Assembly: GCA_036399735.1 (NCBI GenBank)
Contig: DASWMN010000003.1
Location: 11,399 to 75,398, forward strand
Source of the DNA: Telluria sp.
GTDB taxonomy: Bacteria > Pseudomonadota > Gammaproteobacteria > Burkholderiales > Burkholderiaceae_D
Length of the DNA stretch: 64,000 bases
Reading direction: 5' to 3'
A model generated the notes under the pieces. The model did no database searches, had not been told where the DNA came from, and saw only the letters and a list, made by a program, of their open reading frames with translations. Within the stretch, counting starts at the first letter, position 1, and every line of letters begins with the position of its first letter. Positions 1,986 to 50,528 of the stretch are shown here, piece after piece. The position numbers were made by a program, and so were the translations under genes.

Positions 1986-3689
1986 ATGACCCACCCTTCC
2001 CGCAGTGGCGGCCAGATCCTGGTTGACGCCCTCAAGATCCACGGCGTCGACACCGCCTTCGGCGTGCCTGGCGAGAGCTACCTCGACGTCCTCGACGCCC
2101 TGCACGATTCGGACATCCGTTTCATCATCAACCGCCAGGAAGGCGGGGCCGCCTTCATGGCCGAAGCCTACGGCAAAATGACCGGCAAGCCCGGCATCTG
2201 CTTCGTTACCCGCGGTCCTGGCGCGACCAATGCCTCGATCGGGGTGCACACCGCCTACCAGGATTCGACCCCGATGATCCTGTTCATCGGCCAGGTCGGC
2301 AACGACTTCATGGACCGCGAAGCCTTCCAGGAGATCGACTACCGCCGCATGTTCGGCCAGATGGCCAAATGGGTCACGCAGATCGACCGCGCCGACCGCA
2401 TTCCCGAATACCTCGCGCGCGCCTTCCAGGTCGCCACCAGCGGCCGCCCTGGTCCGGTGGTGCTGGCGCTGCCGGAAGACATGCTGATCGACCAGGCCGC
2501 CGTGGCCGACACCAAGCGCTACACCCCGGTCCAGGCCTCGCCTTCGGCAAGCCAGATCGACACCCTGCGTTCGATGCTGGCCCAGGCCAGGCGCCCGATG
2601 GTGCTGCTGGGCGGCGGCACCTGGAACGCGCAAGCCTGCGCGGACCTGCAACGCTTCGCCGAAGCCAATGCGCTGCCGGTCGGCTGCACTTTCCGCTTCC
2701 AGGATCTGCTCGACAACGCGCACCCCAACTATGTGGGTGACGTTGGCATCGGCATCAATCCGAAACTGGCCGCACGCGTGCGCGACGCCGACCTGCTGAT
2801 CGCCATCGGCCCGCGCCTGGGCGAAATGACCACCGGCGGCTATTCCCTGCTCACTTCCCCGGTGCCGAAGCAGCGCCTGGTGCACTTCCATGCCGATGCG
2901 GAAGAACTGGGCAGCGTGTATCAGGCCGAACTGATGATCAACAGCGGCGCGCCGCAGGCCTGCGCCATGCTCGCCGCAATGACGCCGGTCGATTCGGGCG
3001 CCTGGAAAGCGAGCATCGCCGAAGCGAAGGCAGACCTGGCCGCGTACCAGGAGCAGCCGCCGATCTTCAAGGATGGCAAGGCGCCGCTGGACCTGTGGCA
3101 GGTGGTGCAGGCGCTGATGGCGCAAACGCCGAAGGACACCATCATCACCAACGGCGCCGGCAACTACGCGTCGTGGGCGCACCGCTTCTTCCGCTACGGC
3201 GGCATGCGCACCCAGCTCGCGCCGACCAACGGCGCCATGGGTTACGGCGTGCCGTCCGGGATCGCCGCCAAGATCATCGATCCGGCGCGCACCGTGGTCA
3301 CCTTCGCCGGCGACGGCGAATACATGATGAACGGCCAGGAATTGGCCACTGCCGTGCAGTACAAGGCCGGCGTGATCATCATCGTCTTCAACAACAGCAT
3401 GTTCGGCACCATCCGCATGCACCAGGAGCGCGACTATCCTGGCCGCGTGTCCGGCACCACGCTGCACAATCCGGACTTCGCGGCACTGGCCGTGGCGTAC
3501 GGCGCCCATGGCGAGGTGGTCAACACCACCGCCGAATTCGCCCCGGCCCTGGAACGCGCGCTGGCGCACTCGCGCTCGAAATCGCTGCCAGCGGTAATCG
3601 AACTGCGTTACGACGGCAATCTGATTACGCCGAATGCGACGCTGGAGACGATCCGCAAAACCGCGGAGGCGGCGAAAGCGGCAAAGTAA
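1986..3689 (+). CDS. Thiamine-diphosphate-binding enzyme (acetolactate synthase large-subunit-like)
   Basis: N-terminal FGVPGESY..RQEGGAAFMAEAYGK..GPGATN and the ThDP motif GDGEYMM...NNSMFG. Confidence 0.9.
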   Translation: MTHPSRSGGQILVDALKIHGVDTAFGVPGESYLDVLDALHDSDIRFIINRQEGGAAFMAEAYGKMTGKPGICFVTRGPGATNASIGVHTAYQDSTPMILFIGQVGNDFMDREAFQEIDYRRMFGQMAKWVTQIDRADRIPEYLARAFQVATSGRPGPVVLALPEDMLIDQAAVADTKRYTPVQASPSASQIDTLRSMLAQARRPMVLLGGGTWNAQACADLQRFAEANALPVGCTFRFQDLLDNAHPNYVGDVGIGINPKLAARVRDADLLIAIGPRLGEMTTGGYSLLTSPVPKQRLVHFHADAEELGSVYQAELMINSGAPQACAMLAAMTPVDSGAWKASIAEAKADLAAYQEQPPIFKDGKAPLDLWQVVQALMAQTPKDTIITNGAGNYASWAHRFFRYGGMRTQLAPTNGAMGYGVPSGIAAKIIDPARTVVTFAGDGEYMMNGQELATAVQYKAGVIIIVFNNSMFGTIRMHQERDYPGRVSGTTLHNPDFAALAVAYGAHGEVVNTTAEFAPALERALAHSRSKSLPAVIELRYDGNLITPNATLETIRKTAEAAKAAK

Positions 3690-43253: not shown

Positions 43254-43403
43254 ATCACCACAGCGTGACACACCAGGTGGCGCGCACGTGACAATTCAAT
43301 AGTATCCGCGGGTCTTTTTGGCCTATCCTGAACCGTTATCAAAATAATATGCATGGCTTGCCACCATGCCAGTGATTTTGATCAAGACGCAGGAGAGAAC
43401 GCC

Positions 43404-46400
43404 ATGACAGCCGCTTACACCAGCAGCCAGGCCGCCGACATCCAACGCAAGCTGGCCAGCATTGCCGACCAGTTCAGCGGCCCGCTGCCCGAGGACATCG
43501 CCCAGTTTCTGGCCGGGCCCACCACCTGCGCCGACAGCGCCCTGCTGCGCAGCGCGCTCGCCCGGTTCAACGCCGAATTCTGCAAATACCACGAAGACGA
43601 GCCCGACTACGACGAGCAGGTCTGGCGCGCCCTCGACGCGGTGGCCGGCAGCGTCCAGAACGAGGTCTGGCAGTTCGAACTGGACGGCATCAAGCTGCGC
43701 AAGCCGCCCGCCGGGGTGCGCCCGGCTGACGAAGCGACCGTAATCAGCGCCGCCCACCGCGCCGAACTGGCCGGCCTGGCCTTCTCGGGCGGCGGCATCC
43801 GCAGCGCCACCTTCAACCTGGGCATCCTGCAGGCGCTGGCCGCCAACCGCCTGCTGCGCGATTTCGACTACCTGTCGACCGTGTCCGGCGGCGGCTACAT
43901 CGGGTCCTGGCTGTCGCGCTGGCTGAACAAGGAAAACGACATCGCCATGGTCGAGAGCAAGCTCGCGCCCAAGCCCGAAACCCCGGGCGCGGTGCACGAG
44001 GCGGCCCAGATCACCTTCCTGCGCCAGCACAGCAATTTCCTGACACCCAAGACCGGCATGTTCAGCGCCGATACCTGGTCGATGCTGTCGATCTACGTGC
44101 GCAATACCATGCTCAACCTGACCATGCTGGTGGCATTGCTGGCCGTGGCCATGATGGTGCCGCGCTTGCTGGTGGCCTTGGTGGCCTGGCTCGGGCCCGG
44201 CTTCAAGACCCAGTTCGCGGTGCTGGGCTGGGCTGCCGCGCTGTGGTCGGTGTTCTGCATCGCGCTCAGTATTTCCATCAAGCCCAGCAAGGGCGCGCGC
44301 GACTGGCTGCGCGGCCAGAGCCAGGGCAATGTGATCGCCTTTGTGGTCATCCCGCTGATGCTGGCCGGCTTTGCCGGCAGCATCGCCATCTGGTACGGCA
44401 AAGCTTCCCTGCTGCCGATCTGGGCCCACCTGGGCAGCTTCGATTCTTTCCATCCGGCCTGGCTGTTTTTCCCCGGCACCCTCTACTTCGCCGCCTGGGC
44501 CTGCGGCTGGACCGGCGCCCAGGTCATCAATGCCGGTTCCTGGCGCGGGGCCGACTGGAGCGCGGCGCGGCGCCAGTGGGCCGGCCATTTCGGCTGCGCC
44601 GCCGCGGCCTACGCGATCGGCACCCTGCTGGTGCTGGCCACCCTGAAAGGCGCGCAGCGCCTGGCCATGTTCGACGACGCCGAATACGGCAGCGGCATGC
44701 CGGTGCACCTGGTGGCGCTGGGCATGCCGATCCTGCTGTCGCTGTTCGGCATCACCATGATCCTGTGCATCGGCCTGGTCGGACGCATGTACTCCGAGGC
44801 CAGCCGCGAATGGTGGGCGCGCCAGGGCGCCTGGACCATCATCCTGTCGCTGGCCTGGCTGGGCTTGTGCTGCATGAGCCTGTACGGCCCGCCCCTGGTC
44901 GACTATCTGATGGCCAGCGCGGGCGGCTGGGGCAGCAAGATCATGGCCAGCACCTGGGTCGGCGCCACCATTGCCGGCCTGCTGCTGGGACGGGGCGACG
45001 CGACCGGCAAGCGCGACCGCAAACCCTATTTCGGCCTCATCGCGACACTGGCCCCGGGCGTATTCGCGGCCGGCCTGATGCTGCTGGTGTCGGCGTTTTC
45101 GTTCCGCGCCACGCTGGCGCTGAGCCCGGCCGCGAACCGGCCGATCGAGTCCGGCATCATGGATGCGTACTATGCCAACACCGATTTCATTCCCGCCCAT
45201 ATCACCATCAGCACCCTGGTGCTGCTGCTGGTGGGCGGCTACCTGCTGGCGCGCCGGGTCGACATCAACAAATTCTCGCTGTACATGATGTACCGCAACC
45301 GCCTGACGCGCGCCTTCCTGGGCGCCCACAACAAGGGCCGCACGCCCCACCCCTTCACCGGCTTCGACGAAAACGACGATGTACTGCTGTCGCAGATGCT
45401 GGCCAACCGCGCTGGCCACATGCAGCGGCCCTTCCACATCATCAACACCACCCTGAACATGGTGAGCGGCACCGAGCTGGCCTGGCAGACGCGGCGCGCC
45501 AGCGGCTTTGCCTTTACCCCGGCCTTTTGCGGCTTCGAGCTGCCCGCCATGCCCACCCCGAACGGACGCACAGCGCCATGCGAAGCGGCGCGCGGCTGCT
45601 ACCGCCGCACGCGCGACTACGATACCGAGGGCGAGCTCACCGGCGACGACGATGGCGGCATCAAACTGGGCATGGCCATGGCCGTCTCGGGCGCGGCGGT
45701 CAGCCCGAACATGGGTTACCACTCGGCGCCGGCGCTGGCGTTTCTGCTGACCTTGTTCAACGTGCGCCTGGGGCGCTGGTTCGCCAACCCGCTCTGGCGC
45801 CACTGGAAGAAACGCTCGCCCGAGTTCGGCATGGCGCCGCTGCTGTCCGAAATGTTCGGCATGAGCGACTCCGGCGCGCACTACCTGAGCCTGTCCGACG
45901 GCGGGCACTTCGAAAACCTGGGCATCTACGAGCTGGTGCGGCGGCGCTGCCGCCTGATCGTGGTGGTTGACGCCGGCGCCGACGGCAATCTCCAGTTCGA
46001 TGACCTCGGCAACGCCATCCGCAAGTGCGCCACCGACCTGAACATCCAGATCGATATCGACGTCAGCAAGGTCGATCTGGTCAAGGCCGGCGACTTCAGC
46101 ACCGCTCACTACGCCACCGGCAAGATCCGCTACAGCCAGACCGACAAGCTCGAGCCGGGCGCGCACCCGAACGACAAGGTGGTCGACGGCACGCTGTTCT
46201 ACATCAAGCCCTCGCTGCTGGGCACCGAGCCGGCGGACGTGCTCAACTACCGCAAGAGCAACAAGGATTTCCCGCACCAGACCACGGGCGACCAGTGGTT
46301 CGACGAAACCCAGTTCGAAAGCTATCGCGCGCTCGGTTACCGGATCGGCTCGCTCGCCTTCCGCCAGGCGGCCGAGGCCGTGGTCCCGGCCGGGAAGGAA

Positions 46401-46514
46401 AACCGCATCAGCGATATCTGCGCCATCTTCGAAGGTATTTTCGGCAATGGTGCCCCGGCGCGCCACCATTTGCACGTGGTGCCCAAACGCCCCGGCAGCC
46501 GGCGCCAGAACTGA
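43404..46514 (+). CDS. Large polytopic membrane phospholipase (patatin/cPLA2-like)
   Basis: RBS AGGAGA at 43391. Motifs FSGGGIRS (43782-43805), STVSGGG (Ser codon 43884) and SDGGHFENLG (Asp codon 45897), with about 10-11 hydrophobic segments in between. Confidence 0.85.
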   Translation: MTAAYTSSQAADIQRKLASIADQFSGPLPEDIAQFLAGPTTCADSALLRSALARFNAEFCKYHEDEPDYDEQVWRALDAVAGSVQNEVWQFELDGIKLRKPPAGVRPADEATVISAAHRAELAGLAFSGGGIRSATFNLGILQALAANRLLRDFDYLSTVSGGGYIGSWLSRWLNKENDIAMVESKLAPKPETPGAVHEAAQITFLRQHSNFLTPKTGMFSADTWSMLSIYVRNTMLNLTMLVALLAVAMMVPRLLVALVAWLGPGFKTQFAVLGWAAALWSVFCIALSISIKPSKGARDWLRGQSQGNVIAFVVIPLMLAGFAGSIAIWYGKASLLPIWAHLGSFDSFHPAWLFFPGTLYFAAWACGWTGAQVINAGSWRGADWSAARRQWAGHFGCAAAAYAIGTLLVLATLKGAQRLAMFDDAEYGSGMPVHLVALGMPILLSLFGITMILCIGLVGRMYSEASREWWARQGAWTIILSLAWLGLCCMSLYGPPLVDYLMASAGGWGSKIMASTWVGATIAGLLLGRGDATGKRDRKPYFGLIATLAPGVFAAGLMLLVSAFSFRATLALSPAANRPIESGIMDAYYANTDFIPAHITISTLVLLLVGGYLLARRVDINKFSLYMMYRNRLTRAFLGAHNKGRTPHPFTGFDENDDVLLSQMLANRAGHMQRPFHIINTTLNMVSGTELAWQTRRASGFAFTPAFCGFELPAMPTPNGRTAPCEAARGCYRRTRDYDTEGELTGDDDGGIKLGMAMAVSGAAVSPNMGYHSAPALAFLLTLFNVRLGRWFANPLWRHWKKRSPEFGMAPLLSEMFGMSDSGAHYLSLSDGGHFENLGIYELVRRRCRLIVVVDAGADGNLQFDDLGNAIRKCATDLNIQIDIDVSKVDLVKAGDFSTAHYATGKIRYSQTDKLEPGAHPNDKVVDGTLFYIKPSLLGTEPADVLNYRKSNKDFPHQTTGDQWFDETQFESYRALGYRIGSLAFRQAAEAVVPAGKENRISDICAIFEGIFGNGAPARHHLHVVPKRPGSRRQN

Positions 46515-46622
46515 GCGCAGCGTATGCAAGCCGGGTGCCGGCTTGCACGATTGCCTGCGGCCTGCGGATTTCCGCGCCAGGCTTTATCATCGTAGCAACC
46601 GAGCACAAGCCTCCATGCCGCC

Positions 46623-46910
46623 ATGATCAAGCTCCAACTCCTGCTGCGCCACCCAGGCACCGATCCCGGCATCGATGAAGGCTTGCGTACGGCCCTGGAC
46701 GGCATGGGCCTGTGCGTTACCGGCTGCGGCCGCGCCACCGTGTCGGCCCAGATCGCCCCCGACGCCTTTGCACGGCTGTTCGGGCCGGCGCCCGACAGCA
46801 CGGCCCTGCCCGTGCCCGCCCCGCTGTCCGGCTACATCACGCTGATCACCAGCGCGCCGCCCCACTGTGTGACCACCGATTCTCAGAAAGGGAAACATGG
46901 AGCCATTTAA
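46623..46910 (+). CDS. Standalone protease-propeptide-like protein
   Basis: 95 aa. LRTALDGMGLCVTGCGRATVSAQIAPDAFARLFG aligns by eye with AIEALRQHGFVVSGRGRMTVSVRGSVALFERVFG in the next gene. Overlaps that gene by 14 bp. Confidence 0.7.
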   Translation: MIKLQLLLRHPGTDPGIDEGLRTALDGMGLCVTGCGRATVSAQIAPDAFARLFGPAPDSTALPVPAPLSGYITLITSAPPHCVTTDSQKGKHGAI

Positions 46911-48381
46911 GCTAAGCCAAAGCTATCCGCCCGCCGGCGCCGCCGCCCCGGCCGATGCCGTCCTGCGCATCGCCGTCACGTTCAAGGGCCGCACCCGCAC
47001 CGGGCCCACCAAGATCCCGGCCCGCCTGTCCTCGAACAGCATCGTCAGCTTCGAACCCGAGCCGGGCGAAATGGAAACGGCGATCGAGGCGCTGCGCCAG
47101 CACGGCTTCGTGGTGTCCGGGCGCGGCCGCATGACAGTGTCGGTGCGCGGCAGCGTGGCCTTGTTCGAGCGCGTGTTCGGCACCCGCCTGACCACCATCG
47201 CGCTGGACAAGTCGCTGTGCTACTCCAGTCCCTGCGTGTATTACCCGCCCGAGGGTGCCCCCTGGAACCCGGACCCGGTCCTGTTCCAGCTGATCGACGA
47301 CGCGTATATCCAGTGGCCGCACATCTATCTGTCCGACCCGCTGCTCAGCGCCCGTCCGCCGGAAGTCGACTACTATCACCTTGATGTGCTCAACGACGTG
47401 CCGGCCAAGCTGAACGTGCCGCCGATTCACCGCGAACGCCACCAGGGCGAAGGGATCCGGGTCGCCATGATCGACACCGGCTTCGACCACACGCACCCCT
47501 TCTTTACCCGCAATGGCTTTACCTCCTCGGTGGTGCTGGCGCCGTCGGCCTCGAACCGGGCAACCGATCCGGGCAGCCACGGCACGGGCGAGTCGGCCAA
47601 CGTGTTTGCAATCGCGCCGAAAGTCACCTTCATCGGCGTCAAGCTGGGCGACGACGCCGATCCGCAAGGCGGCGCCAGTATTCTGGAAGGCTTCCAGGAA
47701 GCGCTCAAGCACAAGCCGCATGTGATCACCGTGAGCATGTGCTACGACCTGCGCGAGCAGGACGGGCGCACCGGACTGGACGCCCTGCCGAACGGGCTCA
47801 AGCCGCTGGAAGCGGAGATCCAGGCCGCCATCGCCGCCGGCATCGTGGTGGTGTTCGCCGCCGGTAACGGCCACTACGCCTTCCCCGCCGCCATGCCGGA
47901 AGTGATCAGCGTGGGCGGCGCCTTTGTGGGCGAAGACGGCGCCATGCGCGCCTCCGACTATGCCTCGGCTTTCACCAGTGCCATCTATTCCGGCCGCCAT
48001 GTGCCCGATGTGTGCGGACTGGTCGGCTTGCTGCCGTTTGGCGACTACATCATGCTGCCGGTACCGGCCGGCGGCGCCATCGATATCAGCAATGCCGCGC
48101 ACGATGGCACCACCTCAGGCGACGGCTGGGCCGTGTTCAGCGGCACCTCGGCCGCGGCGCCGCAGATTGCCGCCGTGTGCGCGCTGCTGCTGCAGAAAAA
48201 TCCCGCGCTCACGCCCGCGGACATCAAGGCCTTGCTGACCCGCACGGCGGTCGATGTGCGCGAAGGGGCGGCCAATCCGTCCAGCGACCCGGAAGGGGTC
48301 GGCATCAAGGCCGGCCCGGGCATCGATGGCGCCACCGGCGCCGGCCTGGTCGATGCCCACGCCGCCTGGCTGCAGGCCTGA
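46897..48381 (+). CDS. S8 (subtilisin-family) serine peptidase, no signal peptide
   Basis: Triad MIDTG (D193), GSHGT (H228), FSGTSAAAP (S418) and oxyanion AAGN (N324). RBS AAGGGA. Confidence 0.92.
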   Translation: MEPFKLSQSYPPAGAAAPADAVLRIAVTFKGRTRTGPTKIPARLSSNSIVSFEPEPGEMETAIEALRQHGFVVSGRGRMTVSVRGSVALFERVFGTRLTTIALDKSLCYSSPCVYYPPEGAPWNPDPVLFQLIDDAYIQWPHIYLSDPLLSARPPEVDYYHLDVLNDVPAKLNVPPIHRERHQGEGIRVAMIDTGFDHTHPFFTRNGFTSSVVLAPSASNRATDPGSHGTGESANVFAIAPKVTFIGVKLGDDADPQGGASILEGFQEALKHKPHVITVSMCYDLREQDGRTGLDALPNGLKPLEAEIQAAIAAGIVVVFAAGNGHYAFPAAMPEVISVGGAFVGEDGAMRASDYASAFTSAIYSGRHVPDVCGLVGLLPFGDYIMLPVPAGGAIDISNAAHDGTTSGDGWAVFSGTSAAAPQIAAVCALLLQKNPALTPADIKALLTRTAVDVREGAANPSSDPEGVGIKAGPGIDGATGAGLVDAHAAWLQA

Positions 48382-48563: not shown

Positions 48564-49670
48564 ATGTTCCCGTCCATCCGAAAACTCGGCCTGATTTGTG
48601 CCGTCGTCGCGTCCGCTTGTGCGGCCTCCTGCCTTGCCGCTGACAACAGCGTGACGGAAGCGGCCCAGCCGGTCCCGGTCGCGGTAACGCCGGCGGCGCT
48701 CCCGGTGGCCCAGCGCTTTGACAGCAGAGGGCCGGCGCCGATTATTGTCAGTTTCTTCAACATCAACGAAGAAAAAGTGGATACCTTGCGCCTCGTCACG
48801 CGCACCCACGTTGTCGGCGCCAATATCGCGTTTGCCGCGATCGGTGCCGTGCTTGGTGCGAACGGCGTGCCCACGACGGTCCAGTTCGGGGAAAAAAAAG
48901 AGTTTTATGGTGACGAGATCACCGATGCCAGCAGCGCGAGCAGATTGCGCAGTCCTTTCCGCGTGGCCTTGCCAGCCGCACTGGACCAACAAATCATGGC
49001 GCTTGCCGAAGCGGAGAGTGTGGAAGCCGGTCCTGTCTCTTTGAAGAAAACGCTGAGGATCGAGCCGCGCGAATGGCATCTTGTCTACAACGAGCTCAAC
49101 GCCGACAAGGAGAACGAGGATGCCTATGTACTGCGCTTTGCCGCCTATTTTTCCAAGGAAGTGGAAGGCGAAGAAAGCGCATTCCTGAGGAAGGCGCGCA
49201 GCATCGGCCGGTCTTGTCTGTATGTTTCAAAGCCACAGCCCCTGGCCGCCTGGAAACAGAACGACTACGATGCCATCCAAGCGGAAGGAAAACGCGCGCT
49301 CGAGAGCTGCATCGACCAGTTGACGCCCTCCCTGCCCGCTTTCCTCGGATTCGATTCCAACTCCAAAATCCGTATTGCCCAACTCAATTGCAAGACGAAC
49401 TTGAAACAGTGCGTCGCCGAAGCCGACACGGCTGCCGAACCGGATGAGACCAAGAAGCTGTGCAAGACCGAATACAAGCAGTGCATCAGCACCGACGTCA
49501 AACCCATGATCGACATGACGCCGCTGGGCCAATGCAAAGTGACTCTGGCCGCTTGCAAAGCCAGCGTGATCGACAAGGCGCGCGTAGCCAATCCGGACGA
49601 AAAAGCACCACGCTCCGCGTTTGTACCCTGCTCGCTTGAATACAAGGCTTGTGTGCAGGCGACCAAGTAA
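48564..49670 (+). CDS. Exported hypothetical protein with four C-terminal CX6C repeats
   Basis: Signal-peptide-like N-terminus. Repeats are CKTNLKQC, CKTEYKQC, CKVTLAAC and CSLEYKAC. Confidence 0.75.
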   Translation: MFPSIRKLGLICAVVASACAASCLAADNSVTEAAQPVPVAVTPAALPVAQRFDSRGPAPIIVSFFNINEEKVDTLRLVTRTHVVGANIAFAAIGAVLGANGVPTTVQFGEKKEFYGDEITDASSASRLRSPFRVALPAALDQQIMALAEAESVEAGPVSLKKTLRIEPREWHLVYNELNADKENEDAYVLRFAAYFSKEVEGEESAFLRKARSIGRSCLYVSKPQPLAAWKQNDYDAIQAEGKRALESCIDQLTPSLPAFLGFDSNSKIRIAQLNCKTNLKQCVAEADTAAEPDETKKLCKTEYKQCISTDVKPMIDMTPLGQCKVTLAACKASVIDKARVANPDEKAPRSAFVPCSLEYKACVQATK

Positions 49671-49679
49671 GCCGGCGGC

Positions 49680-50441
49680 TCAGCCGCGGCGCGCGTTCAC
49701 TCTCCAGGCGATGCAAAGGACCAGCACGGCGAAGGCAGCGCTGGCCATACCCGTGACGACGAAGTGGAACAGCCCATGCTCGATCGTCTTCGCGCTGCGA
49801 TACACCGAACCCGCCACGCCCCCGAATACGCCTGCCGCCACTACAAGGCTTAGCGTGAACATCCGTTGCCGCACGCTCAATGGCGCGGGATGGCGTAGTC
49901 CCGGCGCTGTTCGCTTGAACCACATAGCGACGCTGCTGACAATGACGACGAGTCCCGCCAAACTGCTCAGATGCTGCAAAAGCTTGAACACGGGGATTTG
50001 ATATTCACCTAGCGCCACCACTGTTCTGAGCCAACTGAGGCTATCGACAACAACCGTGTTTGCGTGCGTGAACGAATCCCAGATGATGTGGGTTAACGCC
50101 CCGACTGCCAGTGAAATGAGCACAGTGGCCATTGCACCAGGACTTCGCAGGGTCCACTGAATGTCTGTCGGCATGCGCGCACTAACGGCGTGTGGCAACC
50201 ACGCCAGCAAGGCTGGTCTGACGAGCAAACAGTAGACAAGATAGACGATCAGACCAGCGGGAACGCAATAAACCGGCACACCCCACGCCGTGTGCGTGAA
50301 ATTGCCGCCGACGCCCAGGGAAACGAAGTAGGCAAAATCAGGCGCCATGCTGCCAATCACCAAGGCAGGCAACGCTGCGCGCCTGCGTGCACAGGCATGC
50401 AGCGGGATCACGGCGGCCGGGTGGCACAAGGTAAAAGGCAT
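49680..50441 (-). CDS. DUF4184-like membrane protein
   Basis: MPFTLCHPAAVIPL, ALVIGSMAPDF, THIIWDSFTH and LQHLSS. Confidence 0.85.
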   Translation of the reverse strand: MPFTLCHPAAVIPLHACARRRAALPALVIGSMAPDFAYFVSLGVGGNFTHTAWGVPVYCVPAGLIVYLVYCLLVRPALLAWLPHAVSARMPTDIQWTLRSPGAMATVLISLAVGALTHIIWDSFTHANTVVVDSLSWLRTVVALGEYQIPVFKLLQHLSSLAGLVVIVSSVAMWFKRTAPGLRHPAPLSVRQRMFTLSLVVAAGVFGGVAGSVYRSAKTIEHGLFHFVVTGMASAAFAVLVLCIAWRVNARRG

Positions 50442-50528
50442 CAGCAACCTTCAGCCGGGTAATTTCGCCACTGCTCTGCAGGAGCGCAAGCAATGGTATT
50501 GAACGCGCTTGCACGCCCGCGCGACGCC

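Follow-up and report, generated by a model that had tools for sequence, protein, structure and literature searches.

Why would a protease that carries its own prodomain be encoded directly behind a second, separate gene, whose product resembles that same prodomain? This question is raised by a 95-residue open reading frame, termed ORF1 in the following, which ends within the start of the gene for a 494-residue subtilase in DNA assigned to Telluria sp. (contig DASWMN010000003.1). The window, by which we mean the whole analysed stretch of 64,000 nucleotides, was traced to a biocrust metagenome DNA run. An earlier note made from the letters of the sequence had described ORF1 as a free copy of the protease prodomain and had proposed that it acts as an antitoxin-like brake on the protease. 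The resemblance, the standing of ORF1 as a gene, its tie to the protease and its possible role are separate matters, and they turned out to be settled to different degrees.

The locus and the gene junction

The ATG at 46623 is the earliest start codon available in the open frame of ORF1, and the 3' end of ORF1 overlaps by 14 nt with the start of the protease ORF (46897-48381, + strand). The features that are relevant here are the following:

46524..46548, + strand: GC-rich hairpin with a 9-bp GC stem, right after the stop of the upstream patatin gene, in the 108-nt spacer before ORF1
46623..46910, + strand: ORF1, 95 aa, by sequence a stand-alone prodomain paralogue; stop TAA 46908-46910 included
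46662..46784, + strand: core of ORF1, aa 14-54, running from helix 1 through strands 2 and 3 to helix 2; homology with the core of the protease prodomain from BLASTP and hhalign
46824..46865, + strand: ORF1 aa 68-81, L..ITLITSAPPH, with a short helix, then strand 4 and a conserved A-P-x-H; proposed counterpart of protease L129..IQWPH142, from the low-confidence extended hhalign alignment, both models and the joint MAFFT alignment
46886..46910, + strand: junction as read from the window sequence, with GAAAGGGA at 46886-46893, the protease ATG at 46897 and the ORF1 TAA at 46908-46910
46897..47334, + strand: N-terminal prodomain of the protease, aa 1-146, pro-kumamolisin-like according to AlphaFold and Foldseek, with PF09286 below threshold
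47059..47193, + strand: core of the protease prodomain, aa 55-99, matched by ORF1 in BLASTP, hhalign and the genome-wide profile search
47335..48381, + strand: linker and S8 catalytic domain (D193, H228, N324, S418), then stop; from PF00082, the BPN' match and invariant columns

The Shine-Dalgarno-like, purine-rich GAAAGGGA ends 3 nt before the protease ATG, and in the relatives a strong Shine-Dalgarno sequence of the protease likewise sits within or just past the 3' end of ORF1. A motif comparable to that of the protease was not found upstream of the ORF1 start, when the window and the junctions of the relatives were compared. The lack of such a motif on ORF1, as opposed to the strong one on the protease, is a poor fit to an inhibitor that is needed at an at least equimolar level. 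Strict translational coupling with a matched supply of both proteins, as claimed in the earlier note, is for this reason at most putative: overlap or close spacing of the two genes is general, but it is the protease that has a strong ribosome-binding site of its own. The hairpin in the spacer has no T-run, and folding of the whole spacer gave a z-score of only -1.65; it might, on this slight evidence, be a possible transcript boundary.

The S8 protease

The 494-aa protein downstream of ORF1 matches Peptidase_S8 (PF00082) with an E-value of 7.5e-29 over aa 184-455 and subtilisin BPN' with an E-value of 1e-18, and the residues D193, H228, N324 and S418 are invariant across 64 homologues of the protease. 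Its AlphaFold model (pLDDT 81.5, pTM 0.87) consists of an N-terminal domain, a low-confidence linker (142-152) and the catalytic domain. In the N-terminal domain, strands are predicted at 22-29, 72-76, 80-86 and 133-138 and helices at 58-68 and 87-94, with an inserted hairpin at 99-116. When the full model was searched with Foldseek, the best match was intact pro-kumamolisin (1T1E; E 8.3e-22, TM 0.67/0.62, 582 alignment columns), and further zymogens were found among the top matches, namely pro-TPP1 (pro-tripeptidyl-peptidase 1), ProN-Tk-SP, fervidolysin and pro-subtilisin E. That zymogens head this list indicates that the N-terminal domain would sit on the catalytic domain in the fashion of a prodomain. 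At the level of sequence the match of this prodomain to PF09286 (E 0.11, 13.2 bits) stays below the cut-off of 23.5 bits. Going by the models, the protease is an S8 core with a sedolisin-type, PF09286-like prodomain.

Neither the N-terminus of the protease nor that of ORF1 resembles a signal peptide, the maximal Kyte-Doolittle mean over 11 residues being 1.2-1.5, compared to 2.55 in a secreted-looking protein that is encoded downstream. With no export signal on it, the protease itself appears to remain inside the cell, and we presume from its sequence that this subtilase is cytoplasmic.

Sequence homology of ORF1 to the prodomain

The resemblance between ORF1 and the prodomain of its neighbor, as it had been noticed by eye, was confirmed by sequence comparison. 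In BLASTP, residues 14-54 of ORF1 pair with residues 55-95 of the protease, which is exactly the stretch quoted in the earlier note, with 17 identities in 41 positions and an E-value of 8e-6 for the pair. A profile-profile comparison by hhalign, in which 51 ORF1 homologues were set against 113 protease N-termini plus that of the window's own protease (aa 1-146), gave a probability of 96.4% and an E-value of 1.1e-9 over 42 columns. If a looser extension was permitted, these values became 97.1% and 7.5e-11 over 73 columns (ORF1 11-84 versus protease 53-145). This longer alignment also pairs the tails of the two proteins, ORF1 L68..P80-H81 with protease L129..P141-H142, so that the loose similarity of the tails that had been pointed out before is recovered up to a shared P-H, but the column confidence is low in this part. 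As a control, the whole 5.5-Mb genome was searched in all six frames with the ORF1 profile, and just two places came up, ORF1 itself and the adjacent prodomain (aa ~60-99, E 5e-6). The ORF1 profile was searched against the sequences of PDB chains as well, and the only match, a D-Ala-D-Ala ligase at E 0.12, is at chance level.

Judged by these comparisons, the similarity between ORF1 and the prodomain is far beyond chance. In a joint alignment the mean identity is 38% among ORF1 proteins, 55% among prodomains and 22% between the two groups, which suggests a single old duplication of the prodomain segment, followed by co-inheritance of the copy with the protease. The sequences thus make a solid case for ORF1 as a stand-alone paralogue of the prodomain that the subtilase just downstream carries. 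The two are not alike in every respect. In strand 4 of the protease prodomain the pair D134-D135 is invariant, and the aligned residues of ORF1 are T73-L74, so that the pair is not conserved there. For the BPN' propeptide, helix-capping residues have been described (PMC6993865), and by analogy the D134-D135 pair could match these.

The assignment to a known family fared less well. The earlier note had referred to free propeptide homologues of the I9 family and had suggested a comparison with PF05922 and PF09286. PF05922 (Inhibitor_I9) did not match ORF1 or any of the 51 family members up to an E-value of 10, and we conclude on this basis that, by sequence, ORF1 does not belong to family I9. 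PF09286 did not match ORF1 either, and the signals obtained with it are all below threshold, one of the 51 homologues being matched at E 0.013 in addition to the marginal match of the protease prodomain mentioned above. Searches with Pfam, NCBIfam and PADLOC left ORF1 without any match.

ORF1 as a separate gene under selection

A small reading frame in front of a longer one can have trivial origins. ORF1 could be a 5' piece of the protease gene, severed from it by a frameshift, be it in a pseudogene, by an assembly error or as programmed frameshifting, or it could be a chance ORF in GC-rich DNA. The comparison of loci speaks against all of these. In every locus but one, the ORF1 stop lies just before the protease start or overlaps with it, and the two genes stand in different frame relations from one locus to the next: a +1 overlap of 14 nt is found in three loci (L001, L002, L004), four others (L008, L009, L011, L012) have an in-frame ORF1 stop plus three codons before the protease, and further frame relations occur in L005, L007 and L013. 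Elsewhere, the spacing is a 4-nt overlap or a gap of 3-12 nt; in a Vicinamibacterales genome, for example, the genes overlap by 4 nt (ORF1 gene end 4004, protease gene start 4001). Only in Massilia sp. H-1 (CP087969.1) do ORF1 and the protease share one frame, and this single record is what can be said for a split gene. In that record, the completeness is estimated as 48% for a "complete" chromosome of 5.8 Mb, the upstream patatin gene is broken up into four segments in different frames, and the junction contains homopolymer runs. Because of this combination we take the in-frame fusion to be an indel artefact. A frameshifted, split or programmed arrangement was therefore rejected, since the frame relation varies and the stop is present everywhere but in the indel-ridden H-1 sequence.

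The family data point in the same direction. A word-indexed search returned 51 proteins with lengths of 93-129 aa and 43-75% identity, the ORF1 of the window among them, and no Pfam domain is present in any of these. When 1.84 billion representatives of clusters at 50% identity were searched exhaustively with the profile, 328 were matched with E-values of 1e-3 or lower, 158 of them at 1e-10 or lower. The best 150 of these 328 representatives have 65-196 aa, mostly 85-120, and no protein of protease length is among them, which is at odds with a severed protease fragment. The N-terminus MIKLQLLL is invariant as protein while its synonymous sites vary, and L74, I75, T76, A78 and P79 are conserved in at least 90% of the sequences. 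In close pairs, the Nei-Gojobori estimate of dN/dS lies at 0.20-0.30 in ORF1, at 0.07-0.19 in the cis prodomain and at 0.06-0.12 in the catalytic domain. These values, which are not near 1, agree with the earlier expectation that ORF1 is conserved as coding sequence, and indicate that ORF1 is under purifying selection, yet evolves faster than the protease. As far as sequence comparison allows, a split gene or a chance ORF is refuted by these comparative data, and we give this explanation practically no weight.

Linkage to the protease and distribution

The protease was found at E-values of 1e-100 or lower in 14 of 41 genomes of relatives, all of one genus, which is that of the window (Massilia in the record names). 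The search with ORF1 flags those same 14 genomes, and 13 of them truly have ORF1 directly upstream of the protease. Among cultivated strains, Massilia sp. CF038 is a carrier, with a protease of 92% identity. The remaining one (G023), an 80%-complete genome, lacks ORF1 at the locus, where a gap of 66 nt separates trmL from an intact protease of 494 aa; its apparent ORF1 match was dismissed as spurious (E 0.007, on another contig among unrelated genes). An intact protease in the absence of ORF1 means that ORF1 is not indispensable, and this one genome weakens the antitoxin-like reading of the earlier note.

At more distant loci, where the protease identity is about 57-79%, an ORF1-family gene lies directly upstream in all seven cases with a sequence check (HMM E-values of 4e-19 to 4e-39), and an eighth locus has a 99-aa gene at the ORF1 position, as known from position and length. 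One named lineage among these is Vicinamibacterales, and Acidobacteriota occur among the names of the distant protease relatives. All other neighboring genes differ at each distant locus. By these comparisons, ORF1 and the protease form a two-gene module with near-obligate adjacency, even across phyla.

Within the order the module is patchy, as no carrier of ORF1 other than the window's own genome was found in a sample of 301 genomes from 143 genera. A pattern scan with IKLQLLLRHP returned Oxalobacteraceae only, and this pattern is too specific for gauging the taxonomic breadth. Relatives of ORF1 were not found in plasmid or phage collections. As an extension of the module, a three-gene unit with the upstream patatin-like phospholipase (43353-46514) was considered and discarded, because trmL is the upstream gene in L005, L010, L019 and L032 and the neighbors at distant loci are unrelated. 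ORF1 directly adjoins trmL in other loci from Massilia, and from the sequences it appears that one subclade (G000, G014, G012) acquired the patatin gene as an insertion between these two.

The predicted fold of ORF1

The AlphaFold model of ORF1, which is based on an alignment of 51 sequences, has a pLDDT of 80 and shows strands at 2-8, 31-35, 39-44 and 72-77 and helices at 19-27 and 46-53, followed by a disordered tail. The final 14 residues are variable and disordered, with a pLDDT of ~50. Judged by the order of elements in the models, ORF1 and the N-terminal domain of the protease have the succession strand-helix-strand-strand-helix-strand in common, and the joint MAFFT alignment places two insertions in the cis prodomain that are absent from ORF1. 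In strand 1 of ORF1 the invariant residues I2, K3, L4, Q5, L7 and L8 lie on both faces. A conserved face that is exposed is expected if the sheet serves as a binding surface, and this conservation pattern favors the view that the sheet of ORF1 may be such a surface.

The Foldseek search that had been proposed as a check gave a mixed result. With the model of ORF1 alone, nothing was found below an E-value of 0.1, the best match being an acylphosphatase at 0.16, and the neighbors are generic ferredoxin-like sandwiches (acylphosphatase, ACT, RRM), which outrank the prosegments. Subtilisin prosegments are found among the weak matches, namely the BPN' prosegment (1spb_P; TM 0.47/0.59, E 1.1) and the prodomain of EpiP (3t41_B; probability 0.72, E 0.69). 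The predicted fold is hence compatible with a propeptide, and not diagnostic of one, so that the case for a prodomain copy stands on the sequence homology with the cognate prodomain.

A putative inhibitor in trans and the alternatives to it

Considering the homology and the genetics together, we think that ORF1 is a prodomain-like regulator in trans, most likely a temporary dedicated inhibitor that perhaps also aids folding, and we hold this to be the probable reading, if by no means an assured one. ORF1 would be produced from one transcript shared with the protease. The protease would fold with its own prodomain and would initially be kept inactive by it. The sheet face of ORF1, and probably also its A-P-x-H tail, would then fill in trans the prodomain-binding surface and the substrate cleft of the catalytic domain, so that the signal-less subtilase could stay silent after its cis prodomain is cleaved and degraded, until ORF1 is removed. 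An additional contribution of ORF1 to folding is conceivable in this scheme. The conserved adjacency of ORF1 and the protease has the genetic logic of a dedicated partner. A strict antitoxin is unlikely, given that the D134-D135 pair is not kept in ORF1, that ORF1 has no Shine-Dalgarno sequence and that G023 manages without it, and a modulatory brake still appears to be the best reading.

Homology and linkage would be just the same if ORF1 were an extra intermolecular chaperone for folding or maturation that exerts no lasting inhibition, and it is established that subtilase prodomains are folding catalysts which are active also in trans (PMC6993865). We regard a pure folding helper as unlikely, though, because the protease keeps its own prodomain, which is the more conserved of the two by its dN/dS and should suffice for folding, and because the protease of G023 is intact without ORF1. 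A non-inhibitory partner is also rather unlikely in our view. In that case ORF1 would pair sheet-to-sheet with the cis prodomain or with itself in the manner of ACT domains, and would tune activation as a sensor, adaptor or localisation subunit. This idea gains from the top Foldseek neighbors, which are ACT- and acylphosphatase-type domains of which many dimerise or bind ligands, and from the fact that the aspartate pair of the protease prodomain was not kept; moreover, a dimerisation driven by the prodomain has been reported for Plasmodium SUB1 (PMC10936178). Against it stands that all these Foldseek matches are non-significant and that the sole significant relationship of ORF1 is the one with the prodomain.

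A small gene directly 5' of an S8 protease, with an invariant N-terminus and variable, disordered final 14 residues, can also call to mind a substrate or precursor of the protease, either RiPP-like or as a decoy, in which a leader would be conserved and the C-terminal tail would vary, and lantibiotic leader peptidases, with CylA, do occur among the PDB relatives of the protease. We consider this highly improbable, since a folded domain homologous to the prodomain is predicted for ORF1, modification enzymes are not conserved nearby and the neighbors at distant loci all differ, and in the clade of the window the last codons of the tail are constrained by the overlap with the ribosome-binding site and start of the protease. 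The putative inhibitor can also be extended to a much bolder proposal, namely a self-contained, horizontally moving cytoplasmic protease switch, in which the subtilase would be a doubly locked zymogen, with one lock in its cis prodomain and the other in a free copy of it that evolves faster. A trigger such as stress, infection or the loss of a labile ORF1 would then free the subtilase for degrading proteins of the cell or of an invader. We find this very doubtful; if it were true, the switch would amount to a toxin-antitoxin or abortive-infection-like module based on a protease, for which current defence catalogues have no counterpart. In PADLOC the protease is matched by a generic "subtilase" model (E 6.7e-16) and marginally by IetS (E 0.0014).

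Relation to known inhibitors and zymogens

Several stand-alone, propeptide-like inhibitors are known for subtilases that retain their own propeptides, namely POIA1, yeast PBI2, Arabidopsis SPI-1, TgMIC5 and Plasmodium SUB1-ProM (PMC6993865). [quoted passage not shown] By design, SUB1-ProM may be taken as the closest analogue of ORF1, as it is a small separate product with a propeptide fold whose greatest similarity is to the propeptide of one particular subtilase, with an adjacent gene, and as its target subtilase keeps its own propeptide like the partner of ORF1. The Plasmodium pair differs in being eukaryotic, with both proteins secreted into the parasitophorous vacuole, whereas the ORF1 pair is bacterial, has an operon-like arrangement with overlapping or nearly abutting genes, and lacks signal peptides, and the inhibition by ORF1 is putative. 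Another difference is that the likeness of ORF1 to the prodomain of its own protease is detectable by sequence.

This last point also separates ORF1 from the stand-alone inhibitors of family I9 (Pleurotus POIA1, PBI2 and SPI-1; PF05922). These are free proteins with the same strand-helix-strand-strand-helix-strand order and act on S8 proteases, and the complex of POIA1 with subtilisin (1v5i) was found by Foldseek among the structural relatives of the protease catalytic domain. The I9 stand-alone proteins have no significant sequence similarity to propeptides (PMC6993865), in contrast to ORF1, which by sequence is a true paralogue of its cognate, pro-kumamolisin-type prodomain and in whose family PF05922 matches 0 of 51 members.

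In bacteria, the closest analogue in concept would be Spi, the inhibitor of the protease SpeB. Spi of Streptococcus pyogenes is reported to resemble the propeptide of SpeB (Kagawa et al. 2005, Mol Microbiol). Spi and the staphostatins are bacterial and cytoplasmic, are co-transcribed with the protease gene and are thought to neutralise protease that becomes prematurely active in the producer (PMC3462683). Their targets are secreted cysteine proteases (C10 and C47), whereas that of ORF1 would be an S8 serine protease without export signal, and the staphostatins, unlike ORF1, are unrelated to propeptides.

A different kind of relationship connects the protease to the sedolisins (S53), as no structure matched the whole protease model better than pro-kumamolisin (PF09286, 1T1E), and the corresponding HMM matches are sub-threshold. 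The catalytic triad of S53 enzymes is Ser-Glu-Asp, and to our knowledge their activation domain is always present in cis. In the system described here, the catalytic domain is of the S8 type (Asp-His-Ser), and a second copy of the prodomain is encoded by a separate gene.

What the module adds

For a few eukaryotic subtilases it has already been demonstrated that free prodomain copies act as dedicated inhibitors, and the same principle reportedly applies to the streptococcal cysteine protease SpeB. The ORF1 system is therefore best seen as an expected extension of known biology and not as a new principle. A literature search did not turn up a bacterial stand-alone homologue of a subtilase prodomain, although a published case may still exist. 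What is new is an unannotated bacterial family of at least 328 clusters at 50% identity, which is tied to one signal-less S8 subfamily with a sedolisin-type prodomain. If the proposed function is true, "hypothetical proteins" of about a hundred residues would gain a name and a function, it would be seen how a subtilase that is retained in the cytoplasm is kept harmless, and a natural matched pair of protease and inhibitor would be at hand for enzymology and engineering. The module is found in soil bacteria, in Massilia according to the record names, with distant named relatives in Acidobacteriota.

Genomic surroundings of the ORF1-protease pair

In the window, the spacing between trmL, the gene that lies upstream of the pair in other Massilia loci, and ORF1, the stand-alone prodomain paralogue, is taken up by a large coding sequence and a short inverted repeat:

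43353-46514, + strand, patatin-like protein of 1053 aa (PF01734, E 6.8e-8, matched over aa 142-210 only)
46524-46548, + strand, GC-rich hairpin with a perfect 9-bp stem, GCAAGCCGG-gtg-CCGGCTTGC, 10 nt past the patatin stop

The patatin-like gene is found between trmL and ORF1 only in the window's own genome and in two relatives (G014 and G012). As trmL directly abuts ORF1 in the other loci, the patatin-like gene seems to have been inserted into the spacer between these two genes and to lie outside the ORF1-protease module. No T-run accompanies the hairpin, which may mark a transcript end or processing site between the patatin-like gene and the ORF1-protease pair.

A locus without ORF1, an apparent fusion and the gene junction

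A natural "ORF1 deletion" is provided by one genome of the genus (G023), where locus L019 (G023:C170, 1155-3176) has the order trmL, 66 nt and protease, with ORF1 absent; the protease is intact at 494 aa and 81% identical. In the "complete genome" of Massilia sp. H-1 (CP087969.1; loci L021 and L003), ORF1 and the protease are fused in frame at homopolymer runs, the patatin gene is spread over four different frame segments and completeness is estimated at 48%. The record probably comes from long reads assembled without correction; it is unsuitable as Rosetta-stone evidence.

At the junction itself, the two reading frames overlap:

46883-46910, + strand, last codons of ORF1, overlapping the protease ribosome-binding site and first codons

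The C-terminal end reads ..KGKHGAI in the window's clade and KGKNAAI in relatives. These codons are conserved because they overlap the protease's ribosome-binding site and first codons, and the conservation of the tail here is not to be taken for protein-level constraint on ORF1.

Other neighbours of the pair

Downstream of the pair, the window carries two genes, neither of which is kept beside it in other loci:

48564-49670, + strand, cysteine-rich protein of 368 aa whose N-terminus resembles a signal peptide, without a match in Pfam, NCBIfam or PADLOC
49680-50447, - strand, DUF4184 / zinc phospholipase C-like membrane protein (PF13803, E 2.8e-56)

In two related lineages, two small conserved genes that are absent from the Massilia loci precede the pair:

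L015 (from Vicinamibacterales) 2671-3159 and L030 1234-1723, two small genes 5' of ORF1-protease

One encodes 69 aa (MFYFFRKGD...GWAGPFGRE) and the other 87-88 aa, a protein that has an arginine-rich N-terminus and looks helical by eye; in L030 the two lead on to ORF1 nearly without gaps. On the JGI contig of P0137, one distant ORF1-protease pair is preceded, at a distance of about 400 nt, by a T6SS Hcp gene, and another such pair is followed by a gene of the MbnB/TglH/ChrH family (L029, 4275-5147). Each of these neighbours was seen once and may be a coincidence.
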